From Deltaproteobacteria bacterium (lineage in GTDB: Bacteria > Myxococcota_A > Polyangia > Polyangiales > Houyiibacteriaceae), in NCBI GenBank assembly GCA_034670305.1, contig JAXMNT010000006.1:160001-224000 (forward strand): a DNA stretch of 64,000 nt, given 5' to 3'. Under the pieces are notes generated by a model, which was not told the DNA's origin, did no database searches, and was given only the letters and a program-made list of their open reading frames with translations. Shown piece after piece: positions 4,356-47,281 of the stretch. The position numbers and the translations under genes were made by a program. Each line of letters starts with the position of its first letter. Position 1 is the first letter of the stretch.

Positions 4356-5381
4356 CTACTCGCGCCAGAAGAGTTTCCAGGGGTTGTGCTTCAGGTCGCG
4401 AAGCATCTCCTGGATGTCGTCGTAGATCTCTTCGTCCATGACCAGGCCGCCAACCGTGCCGCGGCCTTCGCGGATGTGGCCGACGATGCCTCGGGCGTCC
4501 GCGATGGTGGCGTTCGCGGTCTCGGCGAGCTCGGAGGCTTCGTGGATGGCGGTGCGGATCTCTTCCTGCTGCTGCGGACCGAACGCTTCGAGGGCGCCGG
4601 AGCCGTTCTCCGCCATGGAGCGCACGTCCCGGAGGATGGGATCGATGTCGCGTGCGACGGAGGCGAGCGTCGAGTCCAGGTTGCGCATGGTGCGTTGGAG
4701 CCGGGCGCCGTTGACGATGCCGTTGGCTCCGTCGAGGACTTCGTTGGTCTGCTCGGTCGCGCGCTCGACGTTCGCGAGGATGTTGTCGAGCCGGCCGTCG
4801 TTCTCTTGGAGCAACTCGTCGAGCTGCCGGATCATGTTCGCCGCCGAGGTCAGCAGGCCGGCCAGTTCCTCCCGGTTGTCCCGGACCAGGCTGGTCATGC
4901 CTTCAAGCAACTCGTAGGCGAGGGAGAGCGCGAGATCGAGTCGGGGGGGGTCGACGCCTTCCACGATCGCGCCGGCTTCGAGCGCGGGCCGTTCGGGGTC
5001 GCCCGGATCCACCGCGATGATCGATTCGCCCAGCATGCTCTGGCTGGTGACGTAGAAGAGCGCGTCTTCGTGGATCGTGTCGCGGATGTTGTCGTCGATC
5101 TCGAGCTTCATGCGGATCAGCGGCCGGCGGCCAGTCTGCGGATCGAGGCGTCCACCGCGGTACTCGATCTCCTCGACCCGGCCGACTCGGATGCCGCCCA
5201 CGTTCACGGAGGCGCCGGGTTGCACGTTGCCCGGGTTGTCGAAGTCGACGAAGAGTTCGTACTGGTCGCCGAGTTCCACCCCGCCGAGAAAGAAGATGAA
5301 CGCGCCGAGCATGCCGAGCGCGACGAGCACCAGCAGCCCCACTCGGACCTCGACGCTCAAGCCCTTCTTCTTCTCGCTCAT
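4356..5381 (-). CDS. mlaD: MCE/MlaD family protein with long helical C-terminus
   Basis: EVRVGLLV TM helix, MCE domain (GASVNVGGIRVGRV), helical region, C-terminal GTVGGLV...LKHNPWKL. Confidence 0.9.
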   Translation of the reverse strand: MSEKKKGLSVEVRVGLLVLVALGMLGAFIFFLGGVELGDQYELFVDFDNPGNVQPGASVNVGGIRVGRVEEIEYRGGRLDPQTGRRPLIRMKLEIDDNIRDTIHEDALFYVTSQSMLGESIIAVDPGDPERPALEAGAIVEGVDPPRLDLALSLAYELLEGMTSLVRDNREELAGLLTSAANMIRQLDELLQENDGRLDNILANVERATEQTNEVLDGANGIVNGARLQRTMRNLDSTLASVARDIDPILRDVRSMAENGSGALEAFGPQQQEEIRTAIHEASELAETANATIADARGIVGHIREGRGTVGGLVMDEEIYDDIQEMLRDLKHNPWKLFWRE

Positions 5382-5448
5382 CGCATCCACCCGGACGGGT
5401 GCGTCGAAGCGGGGAGGGCGGTCATCGGAACGTCATACGACATCGGCG

Positions 5449-6195
5449 TCAGACGTCCATCGGGCCTTCGGCCCGCCCTTGGATGAACTGCTGGACGATC
5501 GGGTCGTCCGTCGCGCGAAAGTCTTCCGGGCTGCCCAACATCCGCACCGTGCCCTTGTACAACATCGCGATTCGGTCGGCGATCGAGAAGATGGAGGTCA
5601 GATCGTGGCTCACCACGATGCTCGTGACCCCGACTTCGTCGCAGAGTTGCCGGATGAGCTGGTCGGTGCGGCGTGCGCTGACCGGGTCGAGGGAGGTGGT
5701 GGGTTCGTCGAAGAGCACGTACTCGGGGTCGAGCGTGAGGGCGCGGGCGATGGCCACCCGCTTCCGCATTCCGTCCCCGAGCTCCGCTGGGAAGCGGTCG
5801 GCGTACTTCTCCATCTGCACCACTTCGAGCCGGCTGCGCGCGTCGGCGATCGCGTCGTCCATCGACATGCCCCGGTGTTTGCGCAGGGGAAGCGCGACGT
5901 TTTGGGCACAGGTCATGGAGTCGAACAGGGTGGAACTCTGGAAGACCATCGCGCACTTCATCCGCACCGGATACAGCTCCGTCTCGCTCAGCCGCGAGAC
6001 CTCCTGGTCTCCGAGGAAGATGTCGCCGTCGTCCGGGCGGAGCAGGCCGATGAGGTGTTTGATCAGCACGCTCTTGCCCACGCCGGACGCGCCGATGATG
6101 AAGAAACACTCCCGGTCGGAGACTTCCAGCGTCACGCCGTTGAGCACGACCTTCGGGCCGAAGGCCTTCTTGATGTCGACGAATCGAATGGTCAT
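5449..6195 (-). CDS. mlaF: ABC transporter ATPase, MlaF/Mkl family (degenerate signature LGDG)
   Basis: Walker A GASGVGKS, Walker B VLFDEP, H-loop VSHD. ATG start at 6195. Confidence 0.92.
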   Translation of the reverse strand: MTIRFVDIKKAFGPKVVLNGVTLEVSDRECFFIIGASGVGKSVLIKHLIGLLRPDDGDIFLGDQEVSRLSETELYPVRMKCAMVFQSSTLFDSMTCAQNVALPLRKHRGMSMDDAIADARSRLEVVQMEKYADRFPAELGDGMRKRVAIARALTLDPEYVLFDEPTTSLDPVSARRTDQLIRQLCDEVGVTSIVVSHDLTSIFSIADRIAMLYKGTVRMLGSPEDFRATDDPIVQQFIQGRAEGPMDV

Positions 6196-6229
6196 CGGGC
6201 GGCCATCGCGGTGTGGATCGTCGTCCGGC

Positions 6230-7027
6230 TCACAGGGCCGGAAAAACGAAGTACCCGAAGATGCTGATGATGAGGTTGAGCACGATGATGGCGAAGCAGC
6301 TGCCGACCACCGCTTCGGTCGTGGCCCAGCCGACGCCCTCGGAGCCGCCGAAGGTGGCGAGCCCGCGCTGCGCACTGACGAGCGCGATCGCGCCGCCATA
6401 CGTGAACGCTTTGGTCACGCCCATGATCACGTCGCCCGAGTTCACCATGGAGAGGTTCGCAAACGTGTGCGGGTTCACGTCGAACATCACGTTCGCCACC
6501 AGCATGCCGGCGCCGAACGCGATGAATCCGCCGATGATCAGGACCACCCCGCTCATGATCACCGACGCGACGAACCGCGGCACCACCAGGTAGTCGACGG
6601 GGTCCGCGGCGCACATGCGCATCGCATCCACTTGCTCGGTCACCACCATGGAGCCGATCTCCGCAGCGATGCCTGCGCCGACGCGCGTGGCGAGTGGCAG
6701 CGCTCCGACCGACGCCGCCAGATCGCGGATCAGCAGCTTGGTGAATGTGGCGCCCACCATCGACATGTCGGGCACGAGCTTCTGGCTCTGCAGGCCGGTC
6801 TGGAACGTGATGATCGCGCCGATGAACGCCATGGTCACCGCCATGAAGAACATCGACTGGTTGCCAATCGCGTACATCTGCGCCGCGATCGCGCCCTTCT
6901 CTCGCTTGCCGTGGAACAGGTAATAGATGGTTCGCACAGACAGCCGGTAGACCGCGCCCACGTCCGAGATCACCATCTTGAGCGCGGTGATCGGCGAGGT
7001 GTTTTCGGCGCGTGAAGTAAAACCCAT
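6230..7027 (-). CDS. mlaE: MlaE family ABC permease
   Basis: RVGAGIAAEIGSMVVTEQVDAM...DPVDYLVVPR motif. Confidence 0.93.
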   Translation of the reverse strand: MGFTSRAENTSPITALKMVISDVGAVYRLSVRTIYYLFHGKREKGAIAAQMYAIGNQSMFFMAVTMAFIGAIITFQTGLQSQKLVPDMSMVGATFTKLLIRDLAASVGALPLATRVGAGIAAEIGSMVVTEQVDAMRMCAADPVDYLVVPRFVASVIMSGVVLIIGGFIAFGAGMLVANVMFDVNPHTFANLSMVNSGDVIMGVTKAFTYGGAIALVSAQRGLATFGGSEGVGWATTEAVVGSCFAIIVLNLIISIFGYFVFPAL

Positions 7028-7031
7028 CGGA

Positions 7032-7817
7032 TCAGTCCAGGATGAACGTCGAGCAATAGTCGGCGATGAAGATGCCCGCGGCCGCCGCGACGACCGATGC
7101 GTTGACGGCGCGGCCGACGCCAGGGGCGCCGCCGCGGGTGGCGAGTCCGTAGTAGCAGGACATCAGCGCGATCATCAGACCGAACAGGAATGCTTTGATG
7201 AGGCCAACCCAGAAGTCCCAGATCTCGAGCCGCTCCATCGCGGAACTCCAGAACAGCTGCGGGCTGACGTCGAGGAGGAGGTCGGCGGTGAGCATCGCGC
7301 CGCCGAGCGCGACCGCGTCGCCGATCACACACAAACACACCATCATGCTGACCATCGCCAAGACCCGGGGCACGACGAGGTACGCCACGGGATCGATCGC
7401 CAGCGCGCGCAGTGCGTCGATCTGATCGGTCACCGCCATCGTGCCGAGCTCCGCGGTGTTGTTGGCGCCCACCCGTCCGTTGAAGATCAGACCGATCAGA
7501 AGCGGGCCGATCTCCCGGAAGGTGGTGAACGTGGCGGCCCACCCGATGAACCCGGTGGCCTGGAACTGCTCGACGAAAGGCGCGGCCTGGATGACCATGA
7601 TGCCGCCCGTGAACGCCGCCGTCGCCGAGATGATCGGCACACTGCGCACACCCATGCGGTGCAGGTTCCGGAACAGCTCGTGCCGGTCGATCTTCCGCGG
7701 GTTGAGCCGCGCGAGGATCTGACCGAGCAGCATCGCCACGCCGCCGATCTGGCTGGCGATCGAGAGCAGTCCGCTGCCGATCTTGGCCGGCAACACGAGT
7801 GCCACGGACTCGCTCAT
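7032..7817 (-). CDS. mlaE: MlaE family ABC permease
   Basis: REIGPLL, GRVGANNTAELGTMAVTDQIDAL...DPVAYLVVPR, GVGRAV motifs. Confidence 0.93.
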   Translation of the reverse strand: MSESVALVLPAKIGSGLLSIASQIGGVAMLLGQILARLNPRKIDRHELFRNLHRMGVRSVPIISATAAFTGGIMVIQAAPFVEQFQATGFIGWAATFTTFREIGPLLIGLIFNGRVGANNTAELGTMAVTDQIDALRALAIDPVAYLVVPRVLAMVSMMVCLCVIGDAVALGGAMLTADLLLDVSPQLFWSSAMERLEIWDFWVGLIKAFLFGLMIALMSCYYGLATRGGAPGVGRAVNASVVAAAAGIFIADYCSTFILD

Positions 7818-7836
7818 GCGCGCGTTCCGATCTCGG

Positions 7837-8568
7837 TCACAGCGGACCTTCGGTCAGGCCATGCACGAACTGGCGGACCACCGGGATCTCAGAGCTCCGG
7901 GCTTCGTCCGCGGTACCGTCGAAGACCAAGCGCCCTTCGTGCAGCATGCCGACGCGATCGGCGATGGTGAGCACGCCGGAGACATCGCTCGAGATCACCA
8001 TCACGGTGGTGTCTCCGCTGCGCTGCTCTTCTCGGATGAGGTCGTAGATCTTCTGACTCGTGACCGGGTCGAGACCCGCGGTGGGTTCGTCGTAGAGCAC
8101 GATGGGCGGCCTGGCAATCGTGGCCCGCGCCACGCCGACCCGCTTCTTCTGTCCGCCGGACATGCTGGCGGGAATGCGCTGCTGGGTGCCGGGGAGGGCG
8201 ACCCGCTCGAGCCGTTCGGCGACCCGCTCCTGGATCTCGGCTTCCGGCAAATCGAACAAGCGCCGCAGCGGGAACGCGATGTTCTCCGCCACCGTCATGT
8301 CGAACAGCGCGTAGTTCTGAAACAGGTAGCCGATCTTCCGGCGCACGACGTTGAGCGCCAACGCGTCCAGGGCGGTGATCTCGTCTTCGTCGACGAAGAC
8401 CTTGCCCGCATCCGGTTCGACCAGCCCGGCCACGATCTTGAAGAGCACGCTCTTGCCGGCCGCGCCCGGCCCGATGAGCGCGAAGATGCAGCCGGCCGGC
8501 ACGTCGAGACTCACGTCGCGCAGCACCGGACCCTTGAACTGTTTGTGAATGCCTTCGAGCCGGATCAA
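7837..8568 (-). CDS. mlaF: ABC transporter ATPase, MlaF family (H-loop His replaced by Ser)
   Basis: Walker A GPGAAGKS, signature MSGGQKKRV, Walker B VLYDEPTAGLDP, H-loop VISSD. Confidence 0.92.
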   Translation of the reverse strand: MIRLEGIHKQFKGPVLRDVSLDVPAGCIFALIGPGAAGKSVLFKIVAGLVEPDAGKVFVDEDEITALDALALNVVRRKIGYLFQNYALFDMTVAENIAFPLRRLFDLPEAEIQERVAERLERVALPGTQQRIPASMSGGQKKRVGVARATIARPPIVLYDEPTAGLDPVTSQKIYDLIREEQRSGDTTVMVISSDVSGVLTIADRVGMLHEGRLVFDGTADEARSSEIPVVRQFVHGLTEGPL

Positions 8569-8628: not shown

Positions 8629-9867
8629 CTAGAGGCCGCGCATCTCCGTCGCTTCACGGACGCGCATCACGCCCAGGATGAACGCGGCCATGCGCAGGTT
8701 GCACTTGTGGGTGTTCTGCACCTGGAGAAGGTTCGCGAACCCCTTCTTCATCACCTTGCGCAGCTCGGTGTTGACCCGGTCCTCTTCCCAGTAGAAGTGC
8801 TGCATGTTCTGGGACCACTCGAAGTAGCTCACGGTCACGCCGCCGCAGTTGGCGTAGATGTCCGGCACCACATGAATGCCCTTGCGATCGAAGACCTCGT
8901 CCGCTTCGGGATCCGTGGGGCCGTTCGCGCCTTCGACGATGTAGCGGGCCTGGACGTCCTCGGCGTTGTCGGCCGTGAGCACGCCGCCGAGCGCGGCCGG
9001 CACCAGGATGTCGCACTTCATCGTGAGCACGCTGTTGCCATCGACCTTCTCTGCGCCCGAGAACCCTTCGAGGGTGCGGTTCTTCTCGCAGTGGGCCATC
9101 GCCGCGGCGATGTTGATGCCCTCGCGGTTCACGTAGCCGCCCGTGATGTCGCTGATCGCGATGACCTTGGCGCCGTTCGCGACGTAGTCGTGTCCGGCCC
9201 AGCTGCCGACGTTGCCGAAGCCCTGGATGACGATGGTCTTGCCCTTCAGCTCCTCGCCGTGGTGCGCCAGGATCTCTTCACTCGCGTACACGACGCCACG
9301 CCCGGTGGCCTGGGTTCGGCCTTCGGATCCCCGCAGAGAGAGCGGCTTGCCGGTCACGACCCCCGGCTGGTAGCCGTGGTACTTCGCGTACTGGTCGAAG
9401 ATCCACGCCATGACCTGGCCGTTGGTGTTCACGTCGGGCGCCGGGATGTCGGTGGTCGCTCCGATGATGTCGTGAATGCCGTCGATGAACCGGCGGGTCA
9501 GCCGCTGCAGTTCCGCCTGCGAGAGTTTGCTCGCGTCGACCTGGATGCCACCCTTGGCACCGCCGAAGGGCACACCCGCGACCGCGGTCTTCCAAGTCAT
9601 CAACGACGCCAGTGCCGTCACCTCCATCGCGTCGACGTGGTGGTGGTAGCGCAGCCCGCCCTTGAAGGGCCCGCGCGCGTCGTCGTGCTGCACCCGGAAC
9701 CCGATGAACGTCCCGATGGTCCCGTCGTCCATGCGGATGTTCAGTTCCACACGCACTTCGCGGTGCGGCGTCTTGAGCTGCTTCGTGACGTCCGGCGTGA
9801 GCTTCAGGTGCGCGGCGGCGCGGTCGACGTAGAGCTGCGTGTTCTCGAGAAACTTGGACGACGACAT
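8629..9867 (-). CDS. gdhA: Glu/Leu/Phe/Val dehydrogenase (glutamate dehydrogenase)
   Basis: Motifs GPFKGGLRYH, GGAKGG, DIPAPDVNT, QGFGNVG, EGANGP, GGVTVSYFEW. Confidence 0.95.
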   Translation of the reverse strand: MSSSKFLENTQLYVDRAAAHLKLTPDVTKQLKTPHREVRVELNIRMDDGTIGTFIGFRVQHDDARGPFKGGLRYHHHVDAMEVTALASLMTWKTAVAGVPFGGAKGGIQVDASKLSQAELQRLTRRFIDGIHDIIGATTDIPAPDVNTNGQVMAWIFDQYAKYHGYQPGVVTGKPLSLRGSEGRTQATGRGVVYASEEILAHHGEELKGKTIVIQGFGNVGSWAGHDYVANGAKVIAISDITGGYVNREGINIAAAMAHCEKNRTLEGFSGAEKVDGNSVLTMKCDILVPAALGGVLTADNAEDVQARYIVEGANGPTDPEADEVFDRKGIHVVPDIYANCGGVTVSYFEWSQNMQHFYWEEDRVNTELRKVMKKGFANLLQVQNTHKCNLRMAAFILGVMRVREATEMRGL

Positions 9868-10037: not shown

Positions 10038-10826
10038 CTACACCGCGGGGGCGGCGTCGGGATCGGGAGGTGGGGCGGTGGACTTGCGGCGCCAGGCCCA
10101 GACGAGGAGCACGGCGAGCAGCAGGTTCAGCACGAGGGCACCGGCGAGGATGCCCTTGAGCACGCCAGCGGTTCCGCGGGTGACCGTGACCGGCCCGAGC
10201 GAAACGAGGCGGGCTTCGCGGGGTTCGGCGGCGTGCTGCGTCTGCACGCCGATGACGGCGACGTCTTCGGTCCGCATCTCGTCCACGGCGCCCACGACGA
10301 GCGCGCGCACTGCGTCGGCGTCGTAGGGCGGCTCGGCGCCACGGTATTCGATGAGCACGCTGGCGCGAGGATGGGTGGTCTCGGTCTCGAGCGTCAGCCG
10401 CGAGCGGCCAGGAATTGCCAAGTGGACCCGCGCATCGAGCACACCGTCGATGACTTCGATCGAGCGGGCGAGTTCGCCGCTCAAGCCGGTCAGGAAGCGG
10501 GCACGCTCTTCGGTCGCGGTGGGCACGAGGCCGCCTTCGCCAAAGATCTCCGCGAGCCCTGGATCCGGGGTGCGCGGCAGACCATCGGCGCGCAGCACTT
10601 CGAGCGCGGGCGCCACCTCTTCCGGCGCCACCATGACGGCAAAACGCGCGTCTTCGCCCGACCCGCCGATCTGCTCTTTGGAAGCGCCGATGCCGCGTTC
10701 GTGGAGCGCGACCAAAACCTGGTTCGCTTGTTCTTCGGCGAGGTCCGCTTCGAGGGTCGCTTCGCACGCGCAGAGGAGTGTCAGCAGCGCGAGCCCGACC
10801 AGCACGGTTCGTCTCGGTGGACGCAT
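10038..10826 (-). CDS. SctJ/YscJ/PrgK-like (FliF N-terminal-like) inner-membrane ring lipoprotein, orphan in this window
   Basis: Lipobox LCAC; L-x-EEQANQVLVALHERGI; LVPTATEERARFLTGLSGELARSIEVIDGVLDARVHL; ASVLIEY; ALVVGAV; C-terminal TM. This is the YscJ/FliF pattern. Confidence 0.88.
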   Translation of the reverse strand: MRPPRRTVLVGLALLTLLCACEATLEADLAEEQANQVLVALHERGIGASKEQIGGSGEDARFAVMVAPEEVAPALEVLRADGLPRTPDPGLAEIFGEGGLVPTATEERARFLTGLSGELARSIEVIDGVLDARVHLAIPGRSRLTLETETTHPRASVLIEYRGAEPPYDADAVRALVVGAVDEMRTEDVAVIGVQTQHAAEPREARLVSLGPVTVTRGTAGVLKGILAGALVLNLLLAVLLVWAWRRKSTAPPPDPDAAPAV

Positions 10827-10827
10827 T

Positions 10828-12795
10828 TCAGTTCGCGCTGAAGCCGTACCGCGCACCCATGCGCGCGGATCCGAATGTCGGGAAACGAATGTTGCGCACC
10901 GCGCCGCGGATGCACGACTTGAACTGGCCACTGCCCTGGCGCGCGCTCACGCCCATCACCCGACCGCTGCCCGCGATCGCGATGTCGATCGTCACGTTGC
11001 CGAGGCTGCCGCCGCGGCGCGACTCGGGCACCACGCACGAGTTGAAGATCCGGTTGAGGTTCCGGTTCATCACGCCCTGCACGGACCCTGGATCGAGCCG
11101 GCCCTGTCCACCCATCGAGGTCACGTCGCCGAGTTCGATCGGGACGTTCATCGCGTCTTCGTAGGAACCGACGAACTGTCCGGCCATCACGGCGGCGCGC
11201 ATGCCGCCGCCCATGCCGTGCCGGCGCCCGCTCCGGGGTGGGTCGGGGAGGATGCCCGCGGTGCCAGTCAATTCGATCTCGCCGCGCGCGAAGAGATCCC
11301 CGAGGTTCGCGGCGGCCACGTTCTCGGTCTCGCCACTCTCGCGGGTCACGAGGAAGATGGTCACCCCCGTACCGACCGCGAGCAGCAACGCCGCCGCGAC
11401 CGCGATCTTGAACACACCGCTGCGTTTTTCGCCGGCTTCGGCCGAGGCGATCGCGGCGGCGCGCGCTTTTTCGTCCCGCCCGATCTTGGCCTGGTCGATG
11501 AACTCGCGGAACTCCGGCCACTGACGCAGCAGTTTGCGTTCGCCGGTGTCCATGTTCATCAACGAGTGTTCTTCGAGCACGTCGCTCTTCACGATGAGTT
11601 CGACGAGCTCACGGCCGGAGAAGGGTCCGTGGTCCAGCCCGTCCTTGACCACCATCCAACGGGCGGCGTCGTTCTCGGTGATCTTCGCGAGCAAGCCGCC
11701 CAGGTCCACCTCGGCCGCTGGCGCGGGCGCTTGGGGCGCTGGACCCCCGACCATGCCGGGCGCACCCGGAAGGGAGGGGCGGAACTCTTCGTGAATGCTG
11801 ACCCGGGCGCCAACCTGAGGCGCGCCAGGAGCGGCGGGCGGACGGGGCGGCTTGGGCGGGGCGGGCACCGCGGCTGCGGCAGCGGTTGCGGGCGGACGCT
11901 GGCTCGCCATGTCGATGTCGATGTCGACGTCGAGATCGAAGTCTTCCGCGGCCGTTTCCGGCGCGTCGGCCACGAGCGGCTGAAGCGCGGCGCGCACTTC
12001 GTCGGGGGACTGAAAGCGGCCGCTGGGGTCGGGGGCCAGGCACGTGAGGAGCACCTGATCGAGGGCTGGACTCGCGTCGGGATGGGCCTGCGAAGGCGGC
12101 ACGAAGCCGTCGGCAGGGGACTTGCCGGTGAGCAGTTGATAGAGGATGGCGCCGACGCCGAAGATGTCGCTGGCGGCGGTGGGGGGACCGCCGGCTTTGA
12201 CCTCGGGGGCCAGGCTTGCCTGTTCCGCGACCGGCAGGACGTTCGGACCGCCCGCGAGCAGGAGCGCCTGACCCACCCCGAAGTCCGCCACCTTCACCCG
12301 GCCATTCTTCGTGACCCAGACCACCTCTGGGCGCAGTGCACCGTGGCATCCCGTGGGGTGGACGGCGGAGAGCGCGTTGCAGACGTGTGCGATGACGTTG
12401 TAGGCGCCGCGCAGGCTCATCTGTCCACCTGCGGCGCGGCGTTTGGCGATCAACTCGGCCAGCGGCTGGCCTTCGACCCACTCGCTCGCGACAAAGGGCG
12501 CGCCCTTGGTGCCCACGCCGTAGGTGGCGGCGATGTTTCGGTGGGAAAGCTTTGCGGCGGCGCGACACCCTTCCTTCAGCGTCTTGACGCCGGGTTCGCC
12601 CAGCACGTCGAGACGCAGGACCCGAAGCGAGATCGGCTTTTGGGTCTTCTGGTCTTTGGCGCGGAACACCTTGCCGAGCGAGTCGGCACGGATCTCTACT
12701 TCGATCTCGAACCGGCCACCGACAACCGTGCCCGGCGCGATGAGTCCAGCCGAGGGATCGCGCGCAGTGCTTGCTGCGGGTCGAGCGTCGGTCAC
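10828..12795 (-). CDS. pseudokinase - Pro-rich linker - GYF-like domain - TM - AgmX/PglI/TonB_C-like periplasmic domain
   Basis: Kinase fold with DFG, APE and SDIFGVG kept, but ISLR in place of VAIK and HGALRPEVV in place of HRDLKPEN. RWMVVKDGLDHGPFS is GYF_2-like. C-terminal VTIDIAIAGSGRV...CIRGAVRNIRFP. Confidence 0.85.
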   Translation of the reverse strand: MTDARPAASTARDPSAGLIAPGTVVGGRFEIEVEIRADSLGKVFRAKDQKTQKPISLRVLRLDVLGEPGVKTLKEGCRAAAKLSHRNIAATYGVGTKGAPFVASEWVEGQPLAELIAKRRAAGGQMSLRGAYNVIAHVCNALSAVHPTGCHGALRPEVVWVTKNGRVKVADFGVGQALLLAGGPNVLPVAEQASLAPEVKAGGPPTAASDIFGVGAILYQLLTGKSPADGFVPPSQAHPDASPALDQVLLTCLAPDPSGRFQSPDEVRAALQPLVADAPETAAEDFDLDVDIDIDMASQRPPATAAAAAVPAPPKPPRPPAAPGAPQVGARVSIHEEFRPSLPGAPGMVGGPAPQAPAPAAEVDLGGLLAKITENDAARWMVVKDGLDHGPFSGRELVELIVKSDVLEEHSLMNMDTGERKLLRQWPEFREFIDQAKIGRDEKARAAAIASAEAGEKRSGVFKIAVAAALLLAVGTGVTIFLVTRESGETENVAAANLGDLFARGEIELTGTAGILPDPPRSGRRHGMGGGMRAAVMAGQFVGSYEDAMNVPIELGDVTSMGGQGRLDPGSVQGVMNRNLNRIFNSCVVPESRRGGSLGNVTIDIAIAGSGRVMGVSARQGSGQFKSCIRGAVRNIRFPTFGSARMGARYGFSAN

Positions 12796-13380: not shown

Positions 13381-15264
13381 TCAGGCCTTGGCGCGTTCCA
13401 CGGTCAACGACTCGCCATTGAACTCATGGCCGTTCAGGGCTTCGATGACCGCGTCGACCTTCTCGGCCGGCACGAAGACGAAGCTGTGTTTGTCGCGAAG
13501 CCGGATGCGGCCCACGTCCTTGCGCTCGAGCCCGCCGATCTCCTGGAAGAGTTCGTTCAGGTCGCGCACCCGGGTGCCCGCCTGCCGGCCGGTGCCCACG
13601 TAGAGGCGCACGTGGTCTTCGTCGTCCCGCTCCGCGCGCTCTTCGTCGCGTTCCTTCGAATCGCTCGACGCGCCGTTGTCGTCGGTGCGGCCTTCGCCGC
13701 GTCGGCGCCGACTGCGCCGACGGGGCCGCTCCTGGCGATCCGGATCGCCATCGTCGGAGGGGCGTTCGTCTCGCGCTGCGGCCGGTTTTGCTTCGAGCTC
13801 GTCTTCGGCTTTCGGCTTCGCAGCCGCCTTCACAGGCGCCTTCTTGGCCGGCTTCTTCGGCTCGGCCTTGGGCGCGGCCTTCGCGCGTTTCGGCGCGGGG
13901 CGGGGTGCTTTCTCGCGGCGGGTGGCGGCCGCGACTTCGTCGACATCCGGGGTCGTGCCGAAGAACGCGCCGAGCAGACCGGCGATCAGACGCTCTGCCT
14001 TGGGGTGCGTGAGCAACCGGGCGGCGACGGCGCGATCGATCTCGGCGGTGCCGGTGATGGCGGCGTCCAGCATGCCGAGACGATCCATCTCGCGCCGGGT
14101 GCGCTCTTCGCCAGCGCTCGGGAGCGTGCGTTCCTTCGGGAAGATCTTGTACTGCAAACGCAGGTAGTAGAGCGTCCCGAGCTCTTTCGGACTCACGAGC
14201 GCGATCGCGGTGCCGGTGCGCCCCGCCCGTCCGGTGCGGCCGGTGCGGTGGATGTACTGCTCGATGTGCTCGGGCAGGGAGAAGTTGATCACGTGCGTGA
14301 GGTGCGAGACGTCGATGCCGCGCGCCGCCACGTCGGTCGCGACCAGGAAGCGCAGTTCTTCGGCACGGGTGCGCGCCATGATCTTCTCGCGGTCGCGTTG
14401 CGCGAGGTCGCCGTTGAGCCAGTCGGCGTTGTAGCCGGCCGCCTGCAACGACGCCGCGACCTGTTCGGTCTCGGCTTTGGTGTTGCAGAAGATGATCGCG
14501 CTCTCGGGATCTTCGACCTCGAGGATCTTCACCAGGTCGCCAGCGCGGTTCTGACCGGTCACCGTGTAGATGAAGTGGTCGATGCCGAGCGCGCCCACCG
14601 CGTCGCCGCTCAGCTCGAGGAACTGGGGCTCGACCATGTGGCGTTTGCTCATGCGCTGCACCGGGGAGTCCACGGTGGCGCTGAAGAGCAGGGTCTGCCG
14701 CTTCTTCGGCAGCAGCTCCATGATCGCGTTGAGTTCTTTCGCGAACCCCATCGACAGCATCTCGTCCGCTTCGTCGAGGACGAGCACCTTCAGGCCCGAG
14801 GGATCGAGCGTGCGCCGGCGCAGGTGGTCGAGCACCCGGCCTGGGGTGCCAGAGACGATCTGTGCTCCGTCGGCCAGCTCGCGGGTCTGCTTCTCGATCG
14901 GCGCGCCACCGTAGACGGCGGTGGTGCGGATGCCCTTGTGGGCGGCCAACTTGCCGATCTCGCGCGCGCTTTGAAGCGCCAGCTCCCGGGTCGGTGCGAG
15001 GACGAGCGCTTGAACGCCCGGCGTGTCGTCGACGATGCGGTCGACGATCGGGATCCCGAACGCGCCGGTCTTGCCGGTGCCCGTTCGAGCCTGGACGATG
15101 AGATCGCTGCCGTCGCTGGCGAGGGCGTAGCTCTCGGCCTGCACGAGGGTCGGCGTGGACCAGCCCATCGAGTCGAGGGCTTCGAGGACGTCCTTGCCGA
15201 TGCCGAGCTCGGCGAAGGTTTCGGGGCCCGCAGGGGCTTCCGGGGTTTCTACGGTTTCAGTCAT
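13381..15264 (-). CDS. DEAD-box RNA helicase (DeaD/CsdA-like) with C-terminal DbpA-type RNA-binding domain
   Basis: Motifs ARTGTGKT, PTRELA, TPGR, DEAD, SAT, ARGID, HRTGRTGRAG; C-terminal RRM-like region. Confidence 0.95.
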   Translation of the reverse strand: MTETVETPEAPAGPETFAELGIGKDVLEALDSMGWSTPTLVQAESYALASDGSDLIVQARTGTGKTGAFGIPIVDRIVDDTPGVQALVLAPTRELALQSAREIGKLAAHKGIRTTAVYGGAPIEKQTRELADGAQIVSGTPGRVLDHLRRRTLDPSGLKVLVLDEADEMLSMGFAKELNAIMELLPKKRQTLLFSATVDSPVQRMSKRHMVEPQFLELSGDAVGALGIDHFIYTVTGQNRAGDLVKILEVEDPESAIIFCNTKAETEQVAASLQAAGYNADWLNGDLAQRDREKIMARTRAEELRFLVATDVAARGIDVSHLTHVINFSLPEHIEQYIHRTGRTGRAGRTGTAIALVSPKELGTLYYLRLQYKIFPKERTLPSAGEERTRREMDRLGMLDAAITGTAEIDRAVAARLLTHPKAERLIAGLLGAFFGTTPDVDEVAAATRREKAPRPAPKRAKAAPKAEPKKPAKKAPVKAAAKPKAEDELEAKPAAARDERPSDDGDPDRQERPRRRSRRRRGEGRTDDNGASSDSKERDEERAERDDEDHVRLYVGTGRQAGTRVRDLNELFQEIGGLERKDVGRIRLRDKHSFVFVPAEKVDAVIEALNGHEFNGESLTVERAKA

Positions 15265-46378: not shown

Positions 46379-47281
46379 TCAGCCGCAGACGCGGTTGCGG
46401 CCGGTGCGCTTGGCTTCGTAGAGACGCTCGTCGGCGATCTGCAGGACCGCCTGCGCGCTCTTCATCTCTTCGGTCCACTCGGAGCAACCCAGGCTCACGG
46501 TCACATCGATCTTGGTGCCTTCGAAGAGGAAGGTGGCTTCGTCGATCTGCCGATTGAGTTTGCGCGCGAGTTCGATCGCGCCGTGCAAGCCCACCTCGGG
46601 ACAGATGATGCCGAACTCCTCGCCGCCAGTGCGCGCGACGATGTCGTCCCGCCGAACCATGCCTCGGACAAGGGTGCCGAGCTGGCGGAGCACGGAGTCT
46701 CCGGCGAGGTGCCCGAACGAGTCGTTGATCGTCTTGAAGTGATCGATGTCGAACATGATCAACGAGAAGGTCCGGCCGTAGCGCTGAGCGCGGCTCAGTT
46801 CTCGCTCGAGCATTTCGTCGAAGTAACGTTTGTTGTGGACCTGGGTGAGCCCGTCGGTGGTCATCAGACGGTAGATGACCTCGTGGTACTGGCCTTCGAT
46901 GTTGCCGCCGACGATGAACTTCAGGATGGTGCGGCCCACCTTCAGCTGGTCCCCGTCGCGCAGCGAGATCGAATCGACGATGAGCTCGTCGTTGACGTAG
47001 GTGCCGTTGGTCGAACCGAGGTCGCGGGCGGCGTACCCGCGGCCGTCGTGGCTGATGCGGCAGTGGTTGCGGGAGACACTCTCCTGATCGATCTGCACTT
47101 CGCACCGGGACGAACGGCCGATGATGACCGGTTCGGTTTGAAGCGGGATCCGGCGCCCGAGGTCTTCGCCGTAGATCACCACGAGGCACGCCTGGCGGGC
47201 GTCCTTGGCTTTCTTCTCACCCTTCGGACCGACGACCGTGATCACGGTCTTGTTCGGGTTGGTGGTGCGCTCGTCTTTCAC
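46379..47281 (-). CDS. FHA-domain diguanylate cyclase
   Basis: FHA motifs IGRS, VSRNH, DLGSTNGTYVN; TDGLT, DIDHFKTIND, RxxD I-site (RRDD), GGEEF. Confidence 0.95.
   Translation of the reverse strand: MKDERTTNPNKTVITVVGPKGEKKAKDARQACLVVIYGEDLGRRIPLQTEPVIIGRSSRCEVQIDQESVSRNHCRISHDGRGYAARDLGSTNGTYVNDELIVDSISLRDGDQLKVGRTILKFIVGGNIEGQYHEVIYRLMTTDGLTQVHNKRYFDEMLERELSRAQRYGRTFSLIMFDIDHFKTINDSFGHLAGDSVLRQLGTLVRGMVRRDDIVARTGGEEFGIICPEVGLHGAIELARKLNRQIDEATFLFEGTKIDVTVSLGCSEWTEEMKSAQAVLQIADERLYEAKRTGRNRVCG

Follow-up and report, generated by a model that had tools for sequence, protein, structure and literature searches.

The genes of type III secretion systems (T3SS) are nearly always clustered, and in injectisomes the lipoprotein SctJ forms a ring of 24 copies around the SctRSTUV export gate. 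Here we analyze an sctJ gene from a 64,000-nt stretch of DNA (contig JAXMNT010000006.1, positions 160,001–224,000; the window hereafter) of a myxobacterium of the order Polyangiales, where it directly follows the gene for a 655-aa membrane protein that we designated PK655. The closest described systems are those of other myxobacteria. In its passages on these loci, the survey of Abby and Rocha (2012; PMC3459982) presents the "Myxo" non-flagellar T3SS (NF-T3SS) as clustered, states them only in Cystobacterineae, lists scattered NF-T3SS only for Chlamydiales, Hamiltonella and one plasmid, and quotes the first annotation of incomplete myxobacterial T3SS loci as relics. Likewise, the pertinent sections on Myxococcus xanthus describe a clustered system, T3SS*, that is recruited to prey-contact sites (Kaimer et al., 2023; Herrou et al., 2025; PMC10433427, PMC12075869), and a 17-genome survey, in the part bearing on T3SS, places the myxobacterial systems mainly in the order Myxococcales (PMC10196010). 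Our literature search, which did not extend to supplementary figures of possible relevance (on GYF operons), retrieved no account of scattered T3SS genes in Polyangiales or Sandaracinaceae, and none of a pair formed by SctJ and a pseudokinase.

Our comparisons indicate that the product of this sctJ is very probably the lipoprotein of the inner-membrane ring in a functioning type III export machine, non-flagellar and devoid of needle and secretin, whose nine recognizable core genes are spread over eight loci in the genome of a Sandaracinaceae-like myxobacterium. The scattered set is best read as a dispersed needle-less T3SS and, to judge from gene content, as a hitherto undescribed form of the myxobacterial T3SS*, accompanied by a conserved accessory adaptor, PK655, whose function is unproven. 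The best explanation for the whole, a scattered needle-less T3SS with PK655 as a conserved adaptor coupled to SctJ, has in our estimate a probability of roughly 0.6. The two genes and their parts are located in the window as follows:

10828..12795, minus strand: PK655, ORF (open reading frame) of 655 aa (ORF list and translation)
11941..12732, minus strand: pseudokinase of PK655, approximately residues 22–285 (Pkinase, 64 bits)
11509..11658, minus strand: GYF domain of PK655, approximately residues 380–429 (GYF_2, 15.2 bits, and predicted fold)
11347..11415, minus strand: single membrane helix of PK655, residues 461–483 (read from the translation)
10831..11091, minus strand: periplasmic TonB/TolA C-terminal-like domain of PK655 ("myxo_SS_tail" type of AgmX/PglI), residues 569–655, 87 aa (fold and a sub-threshold match to a hidden Markov model, HMM)
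10827..10830, minus strand: PK655/sctJ junction, ...AAC TGA A ATG CGT..., with the TGA stop, a one-base spacer and the sctJ ATG
10038..10826, minus strand: sctJ, with the likely ATG at 10826 and 262 aa; the ORF as listed spans 10038..10931 (HMMs and matches to structure chains)
10764..10766, minus strand: codon of the SctJ lipobox cysteine (LLCAC; residue 21 of the 262-aa form; read from the sequence)
10092..10154, minus strand: C-terminal membrane helix of SctJ, approximately residues 225–245 (hydrophobic stretch read from the translation)

SctJ matched the Pfam family YscJ_FliF (PF01514) with 83 bits (cut-off 24.4), and a six-frame search revealed no other match to this family in its own genome. 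Its best NCBIfam model was TIGR02544 (146.2 bits, positions 2–190 of 193), with 29 bits for the FliF model; the score lies 16 bits below the equivalog cut-off of 161.95, which was reached by none of the 251 genomes of the phylum. Using phmmer against solved structures, we found matches to PrgK, MxiJ (query 13–246 on chain 10–232, end to end), EscJ and FliF. The lipobox cysteine was invariant among 61 aligned orthologs and is probably the site of lipidation, and the membrane helix is followed, as read from the translation, by RRK and a proline-rich tail. The public gene call (P0121) begins at a GTG at 10805, which gives 255 aa. Scanning for promoters and terminators revealed no sigma-70-like site and, between PK655 and sctJ on the minus strand, nothing that resembles a terminator; from the arrangement at the junction, translational coupling of sctJ to PK655 appears likely.

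The other core genes were found by six-frame profile searches of the genome (7.93 Mb in 105 contigs, 96% complete), which contains a single copy each of nine core sct genes (J, L, N, Q, R, S, T, U and V) at eight loci on eight contigs:

contig C6: sctJ
contig C50: sctV
contig C15: sctR
contig C32: sctU
contig C88: sctN (593 bits)
contig C13: sctS and sctT
contig C99: sctQ
contig C3: sctL

Only sctS and sctT are adjacent, the remaining seven loci being single-gene. Every Sct protein scored higher on the non-flagellar Sct model of NCBIfam than on the flagellar one; the equivalog cut-offs were passed by SctV (774 bits, cut-off 692), SctR (230, cut-off 208.6), SctQ (101.8, cut-off 100.8) and SctS, and SctU, SctT, SctN and SctJ lay just under theirs. 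Pfam scans showed unrelated housekeeping genes at the flanks of all eight loci, for example mreBCD and a gene for an extracytoplasmic function (ECF) sigma factor near sctR, priA near sctU, genes for an SNF2 helicase and a lycopene cyclase around sctN, an M50 peptidase gene adjoining sctL and cytochrome-oxidase assembly genes near sctQ; the latter gene is so close to a contig end (ca. 0.9 kb) that what lies downstream of it is out of view. The sctR ORF as listed (C15, L011 9542–10735, minus strand) is 397 aa long, of which the FliP domain occupies only residues 187–392; either its start lies further downstream or it has an N-terminal extension of ca. 186 aa without explanation.

Several other components were sought in the same genome, at its 96% completeness and with small, fast-evolving proteins liable to escape the search, and were not found. 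For SctD, model TIGR02500 gave only matches to the FHA part, with a maximum of 36 bits (cut-off 86); for a T3SS-type secretin SctC, TIGR02516 gave four matches at three loci (C11, C10 and C55), with a maximum of 122.8 bits (cut-off 238); for the needle SctF there was no match to PF09392 at E up to 0.1; and FliG was not found. Since SctD, FliG and a T3SS-type secretin were not found, what usually connects the ring with the cytoplasmic pods and with the outer membrane is missing from the set.

The scattering of the sct genes is inherited and is no assembly artifact, because it is also seen in a closed genome and in other families. In the closed genome G012, from the same family, SctJ localizes to 8.329 Mb, SctV to 5.652 Mb and SctT to 0.478 Mb. 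Likewise, cross-matching the listings by eye for genomes with both genes on one contig placed SctJ and SctV 0.19–0.70 Mb apart in three genomes of family f17 and 0.5–1.8 Mb apart in five of family f26; in contrast, family f47 (genomes of 5–10 Mb) shows a clustered arrangement, with a longer YscJ/FliF-type ORF 16–38 kb from the SctV-type gene. SctJ orthologs are intact across the family of the window's genome, with 49–64% identity, and four genomes (G002, G018, G020 and G027) lack SctJ, SctT and SctV altogether. Additionally, several genomes of the family or order, G012 among them (C1:5592934–5609585), contain beside the scattered Sct set a FliF-length ORF (ca. 550–590 aa) and an FlhA-type gene ca. 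15 kb apart, which by its gene content suggests that some members have flagella; no such cluster was found in the window's own genome.

The arrangement of PK655 and sctJ is also conserved. Among 29 loci, which are the best SctJ loci in 40 relatives, 26 have a PK655 homolog directly upstream of sctJ and on the same strand, with 27–72% identity; the three exceptions are a short locus, a locus with a helicase gene directly upstream, and one other. An independent sample of the phylum showed the two genes side by side in all four SctJ-bearing genomes of the family (own genome included), and adjacency occurs as well in families f4, f6, f8 and f16 and in five genomes of f17. The named family members with proteins of the pair are Sandaracinus, Sandaracinaceae, Polyangiales and Myxococcota metagenome-assembled genomes (MAGs); both genes are carried by the cultured Sandaracinus amylolyticus (P0062 and P0222), in whose genome paper the word "secretion" does not occur. 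As a control, we examined the active kinase gene downstream of sctV, which was rejected as a conserved T3SS partner, its position beside sctV being conserved in 0 of 29 SctV loci; this shows that adjacency of a kinase gene is no given in such kinase-rich genomes.

An earlier note on this DNA, made from the window alone, had headlined an orphan ring protein repurposed for a motility or signaling machine, a proposal that does not stand given the full core Sct set elsewhere in the genome. Its second suggestion, that SctJ is a dispersed part of a needle-less T3SS, was supported, in that the other core genes are single-copy elsewhere and SctJ, SctV and SctT are missing together; the genome-wide search for sctRSTUV, sctN and fliF that it had proposed recovered sctRSTUVN as scattered single copies and sctJ as the only YscJ/FliF match. 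The note had also held that a T3SS elsewhere lacking only sctJ, together with the absence of a conserved linkage to PK655, would tell against it: the rest of a T3SS does lie elsewhere, in the form of scattered singletons and not of a cluster, whereas the linkage is kept, the check across relatives having returned the 26 of 29 loci given above.

As predicted from sequence and models, PK655 is a bitopic inner-membrane adaptor with the build of GltJ and GltG, its dead kinase and GYF domain lying in the cytoplasm and its TonB/TolA-like domain in the periplasm; the order of its parts is pseudokinase, proline-rich and acidic linker, GYF domain, one transmembrane helix and TonB/TolA-like tail. In an alignment of 113 family members, with the kinase motifs assigned to columns by eye, the position of the VAIK lysine is occupied by arginine in 108, that of the HRD aspartate by alanine, glycine, threonine or serine in all 113 and never by aspartate, and only one glycine is left of the glycine-rich loop, while APE is kept in 113 of 113. 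The catalytic lysine and aspartate and the full glycine-rich loop that mark an active Hanks-type Ser/Thr kinase are thus not retained; going by these motifs, the kinase fold is catalytically dead throughout the family and PK655 is no enzyme.

GYF domains bind proline-rich peptides. The best-conserved stretch of the PK655 family, approximately residues 361–420, falls in the GYF region, which aligned to the whole GYF_2 model (1–50 of 50) with 15.2 bits (E 0.018; cut-off 25.8). Its AlphaFold2 (AF2) model shows a beta-beta-alpha-beta-beta fold with a predicted local distance difference test score (pLDDT) of 82, and Foldseek retrieved as top matches the GYF domains of Smy2 and of M. xanthus GltJ, the latter (7z3c) with probability 1.00, E 0.056 and a root-mean-square deviation (rmsd) of 2.2 Å over 58 columns. 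The membrane helix is followed by a conserved segment, GILPDPP. By sequence, the tail reached 23.8 bits on NF033768 (cut-off 40) and was also sub-threshold for TonB_C (E 0.15); its AF2 model has a pLDDT above 90, and the top Foldseek rows were all C-terminal domains (CTDs) of TonB, HasB, FusB or TolA (E 3e-3 to 8e-2, probability up to 0.97). A VIA-align wide search, independent of Foldseek, likewise gave TonB/TolA CTDs in 12 of the 14 top rows (best Z 6.6, rmsd 2.4 Å, 79 residues aligned). Both the GYF and the TonB/TolA-like folds are thus supported as predictions, with scores that are modest each and a case built on their consistency. PK655 was listed by neither the GltJ/AgmX (NF033761) nor the GltG/PglI (NF033760) equivalog model at E up to 0.1. 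We also considered that PK655 might be a divergent SctD, and rejected this because its periplasmic fold is TonB/TolA-like; no protein with ring-building motifs appeared in the fold lists, though a distant likeness may exist, and PK655 was not found among the matches to TIGR02500.

A second adaptor gene of this general type was found beside the only two adjacent sct genes:

C13:130394–133490 (L169 8391–11490), minus strand, in this order: gene for a 540-aa protein with zinc ribbon (ZnR), GYF domain, transmembrane helix and TonB_C domain, ORF for a 152-aa membrane protein, sctS and sctT (Pfam and NCBIfam)

The 540-aa protein contains a zinc ribbon of the MJ0042 type, a GYF_2 domain (62 bits), one helix and a "myxo_SS_tail" TonB_C domain (44 bits, cut-off 40), which is the exact build of GltJ, and scored 98.8 bits on the GltJ model (cut-off 450). 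Within the genome, the PK655 tail has no closer paralog than the tail of this protein (39% identity over 82 residues), and a gene of this type neighbors sctS-sctT in 15 of 29 loci of relatives, even with its orientation flipped. Another ZnR-GYF gene is present on C45, and C42 carries a GltG-like gene of full length (C42:44264–46255, 442.6 bits); from sequence, the gene on C13 may be either the gliding GltJ or a T3SS-linked paralog. Upstream of this block lies a gene for a protein with response-regulator, MshEN and TPR domains.

From these features we propose, tentatively and with somewhat less than even confidence, that PK655 is made together with SctJ, connects the basal body with a partner in the envelope and a scaffold in the cytoplasm, and so places or gates the machine. 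SctJ would ring the SctRSTUV gate as in other T3SS, and PK655, co-produced with it through translational coupling, would supply links that are missing from the system. In the cytoplasm, its pseudokinase and GYF domain may bind proline-rich partners or a scaffold, as the GYF domain of GltJ does with AglZ in the account consulted (PMC11135422); on the periplasmic side, the TonB-like tail may dock on an envelope partner, as has been modeled for GltG and GltJ on GltD (PMC11761067). The outcome would be a basal body positioned or gated at sites in the envelope, in a manner resembling the on/off switching of Agl-Glt complexes by GltJ, and by analogy such positioning would fit the recruitment of T3SS* to sites of prey contact. 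Serving the T3SS would then be one task among others of a broader adaptor, since genus g3 (below) keeps PK655. A predicted complex of SctJ 22–222 with PK655 485–655, run without controls, scored 0.00 and weighs neither for nor against binding. A bolder version, which we consider improbable, is that the SctD/SctK link (FliG in flagella) has, in this myxobacterial branch, been swapped for gliding-type connectors, in which PK655 and the ZnR-GYF protein from C13 would anchor the pods through their GYF and pseudokinase domains and hook the basal body with their tails to a periplasmic or outer-membrane partner. If true, a secretin-less T3SS would gain by this swap both its missing outer-envelope link and an assembly switch regulated by contact.

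A number of observations weigh against a dedicated coupling of PK655 to the T3SS. The gene gdhA lies downstream of the pair in 11 of 29 loci and a helicase gene is often found upstream, and this partial synteny of the DEAD-PK655-SctJ-GdhA block means that part of the adjacency could be inherited gene order. The two genes are present and not adjacent in at least eight genomes of family f17, two genomes of which have a PK655-like gene without SctJ, and are unlinked in the two genomes checked from another class. In genus g3 (3.7–5.1 Mb, 95–100% complete) an intact, syntenic PK655 ortholog with the DEAD helicase gene upstream is present in 13 of 13 genomes (40–47% identity), whereas SctJ was found in 0 of 13, SctV in 0 of 13 (FHIPEP in 0 of 7) and SctT in 0 of 2. 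At one g3 locus (L142; G162:C5:169002–172886) the periplasmic motif and the tail of the ortholog are still conserved, so the partner of the tail cannot be SctJ alone and, as g3 keeps the gene after loss of the T3SS, PK655 is not exclusive to these systems; the gene is convergent there with that for a PilT-like ATPase. Additionally, the TonB-like tail is very common in the window's genome (the GltG model has 47 matches there, most of them to its tail), and SctJ and four other core proteins are just under the NCBI equivalog cut-offs. These points, from the g3 genomes and the convergent PilT-like gene to the unlinked f17 genomes, the partly syntenic housekeeping genes and the multiplied tail, would be explained if PK655 were functionally unrelated to the T3SS, one of many myxobacterial GYF/TonB_C envelope adaptors (e.g., in gliding- or pilus-related signaling) left beside sctJ by inherited gene order. 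We judge this to be unlikely but the most serious of the alternatives, because the genes are one base apart with no terminator between them, the kinase beside sctV has no comparable conservation (0 of 29), the adjacency survives differing flanks and identities down to 27–35%, and a paralog of the adaptor has its own, independent linkage to sctS-sctT, kept even with changed orientation. Moreover, PK655 is present in 23 of the 24 SctJ-bearing genomes of the sampled order, although related genomes are not independent. A functional link between PK655 and the T3SS is therefore plausible but unproven.

The same co-occurrence data bear on the converse possibility, that SctJ has been repurposed and forms with PK655 the ring scaffold of a new trans-envelope machine without a T3SS export apparatus. 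The window invites this view, with no other Sct gene in 64 kb and a tightly coupled, conserved pair, but we regard it as very unlikely: a complete single-copy export apparatus, with ATPase, stator and pod protein, is encoded elsewhere, no other YscJ/FliF match was found to pair with it, SctJ, SctT and SctV are present or absent together, and across the sampled order 16 genomes have PK655 but no SctJ, against a single one (G040) with SctJ but no PK655. Hardly credible is that sctJ and the other scattered genes are the decaying remains of a T3SS or flagellum that was lost. Incomplete myxobacterial loci were indeed first annotated as relics, as quoted in the section of PMC3459982 on them, and secretin, needle and SctD were not found here; however, all nine genes are intact, single-copy and near or above the equivalog cut-offs, their orthologs are intact at 49–64% identity, the scattering persists over several families, and genus g3 lacks SctJ and SctV, the two genes searched for in this comparison, outright, with no fragments kept. 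We thus favor a scattered needle-less T3SS with PK655 as its conserved adaptor.

The surroundings of the pair in the window contain no further T3SS or flagellar gene among the 29 ORFs scanned with Pfam:

8629–9867: gdhA, neighbor of the pair (Pfam scan)
13381–15264: gene for a DEAD/DbpA helicase, neighbor of the pair (Pfam scan)

No ExbBD- or TolQR-type gene was seen beside PK655 in the same scan. In these respects the earlier note had read the locus correctly: the junction has the one-base spacing it gave for the SctJ-like ORF after the 655-aa gene, the neighbors are gdhA and a helicase gene with no other injectisome or flagellar gene around them, and its domain assignments (SctJ; pseudokinase-GYF-TM-TonB_C with a likeness to GltJ/AgmX) agree with the HMM matches and with the folds from the AF2 models, Foldseek and VIA-align. 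Directly downstream of gdhA, and on the strand of the pair, is a doubled Mla-like lipid-transport operon (MlaF, MlaE, MlaE, MlaF, MlaD; 4356–8568, minus strand). A 300-aa protein encoded at 46379–47281 (minus strand) combines an FHA domain of the YscD-cytoplasmic type (PF16697, 62 bits; cut-off 33.2) with a GGDEF diguanylate cyclase, and is not SctD. On the contig of sctV, C50:17050–19980 (L003 9051–11981, minus strand) is a single 976-aa ORF with Rpb2_6, Rpb2_7, Rpb1_1, Rpb1_2 and an alpha C-terminal domain, that is, an unusual fused and cut-down RNA-polymerase-like protein made of beta C-terminal, beta-prime N-terminal and alpha C-terminal domains.

A core that is complete and looks functional although its genes are dispersed one by one, as found across several families and also in closed genomes, extends the range over which needle-less T3SS are known and raises the question of how the machine is co-regulated; tools that detect T3SS by clustering may miss scattered systems. 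The exit route of a T3SS without secretin and needle is treated as open for the T3SS* of M. xanthus in the relevant passages of PMC10433427 and PMC12075869, and the two TonB-like GYF adaptors beside sct genes are concrete candidates for a part in it, testable in a cultured relative because S. amylolyticus carries both PK655 and sctJ.

Among known proteins, SctJ resembles the injectisome proteins PrgK, MxiJ, YscJ and EscJ in its full-length HMM match, N-terminal lipobox cysteine, C-terminal membrane helix and the full Sct export set in its genome. It differs in that its gene lies away from all other sct genes and probably forms an operon with that of a pseudokinase adaptor, in that no SctD partner was found, and in its score 16 bits below the equivalog cut-off. 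PK655 shares with SctD (PrgH, YscD, EscD) a cytoplasmic N-terminus, one helix and a periplasmic domain, and its cytoplasmic domain likewise belongs to a phospho-signaling family (FHA in SctD, kinase-like in PK655). The genes occur in the order prgH...prgK, and PK655, if the needle genes are left aside, occupies the corresponding place immediately before sctJ. However, PK655 lacks FHA and the periplasmic domain with three ring-building motifs, its periplasmic fold being TonB/TolA-like. With TonB and TolA it has in common the fold of the C-terminal domain (Z 6.6–4.2) and the single-helix anchor, but its helix is internal instead of N-terminal and has no histidine, its cytoplasmic part is large, and ExbBD/TolQR-type genes were not seen beside it. 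The closest build is that of GltJ (AgmX) and GltG (PglI), bitopic proteins in which adaptor domains in the cytoplasm are joined through one helix and a long linker in the periplasm to a TonB-CTD-like "myxo_SS_tail" (PMC3169522, PMC11135422, PMC11761067); the GYF domain is common to PK655 and GltJ, as retrieved by Foldseek (7z3c). PK655 differs from both in having a pseudokinase in place of the zinc ribbon of GltJ or the FHA domain of GltG, in having sctJ and no glt genes as its neighbor, in falling outside both equivalog models, and in coexisting with the separate GltG-like gene on C42.

As to whole systems, the NF-T3SS of Chlamydiales are likewise spread over several loci and taken as functional in the passages of PMC3459982 on them, but they consist of multi-gene clusters at four or more loci and have secretin and needle, whereas here seven of the eight loci hold one gene. 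The known T3SS* of M. xanthus are gene clusters (MXAN_2434–2464 plus a short locus), the long one with SctD, as given in the parts of the reports that describe them, while in our genome all genes but sctS-sctT are singletons, SctD was not found and two GltJ-type adaptors are linked to sct genes; this comparison is by gene content. The closest named relatives of SctV are from MAGs labeled delta proteobacterium, Polyangiaceae and Archangium (47–67% identity). What the scattered set shares with T3SS* and the "Myxo" NF-T3SS, in so far as the sections on their composition describe them (PMC3459982, PMC10433427, PMC12075869), is a myxobacterial host, the lack of any secretin, needle or translocon found, and a non-flagellar core of export apparatus, ATPase, SctJ, SctQ and SctL.

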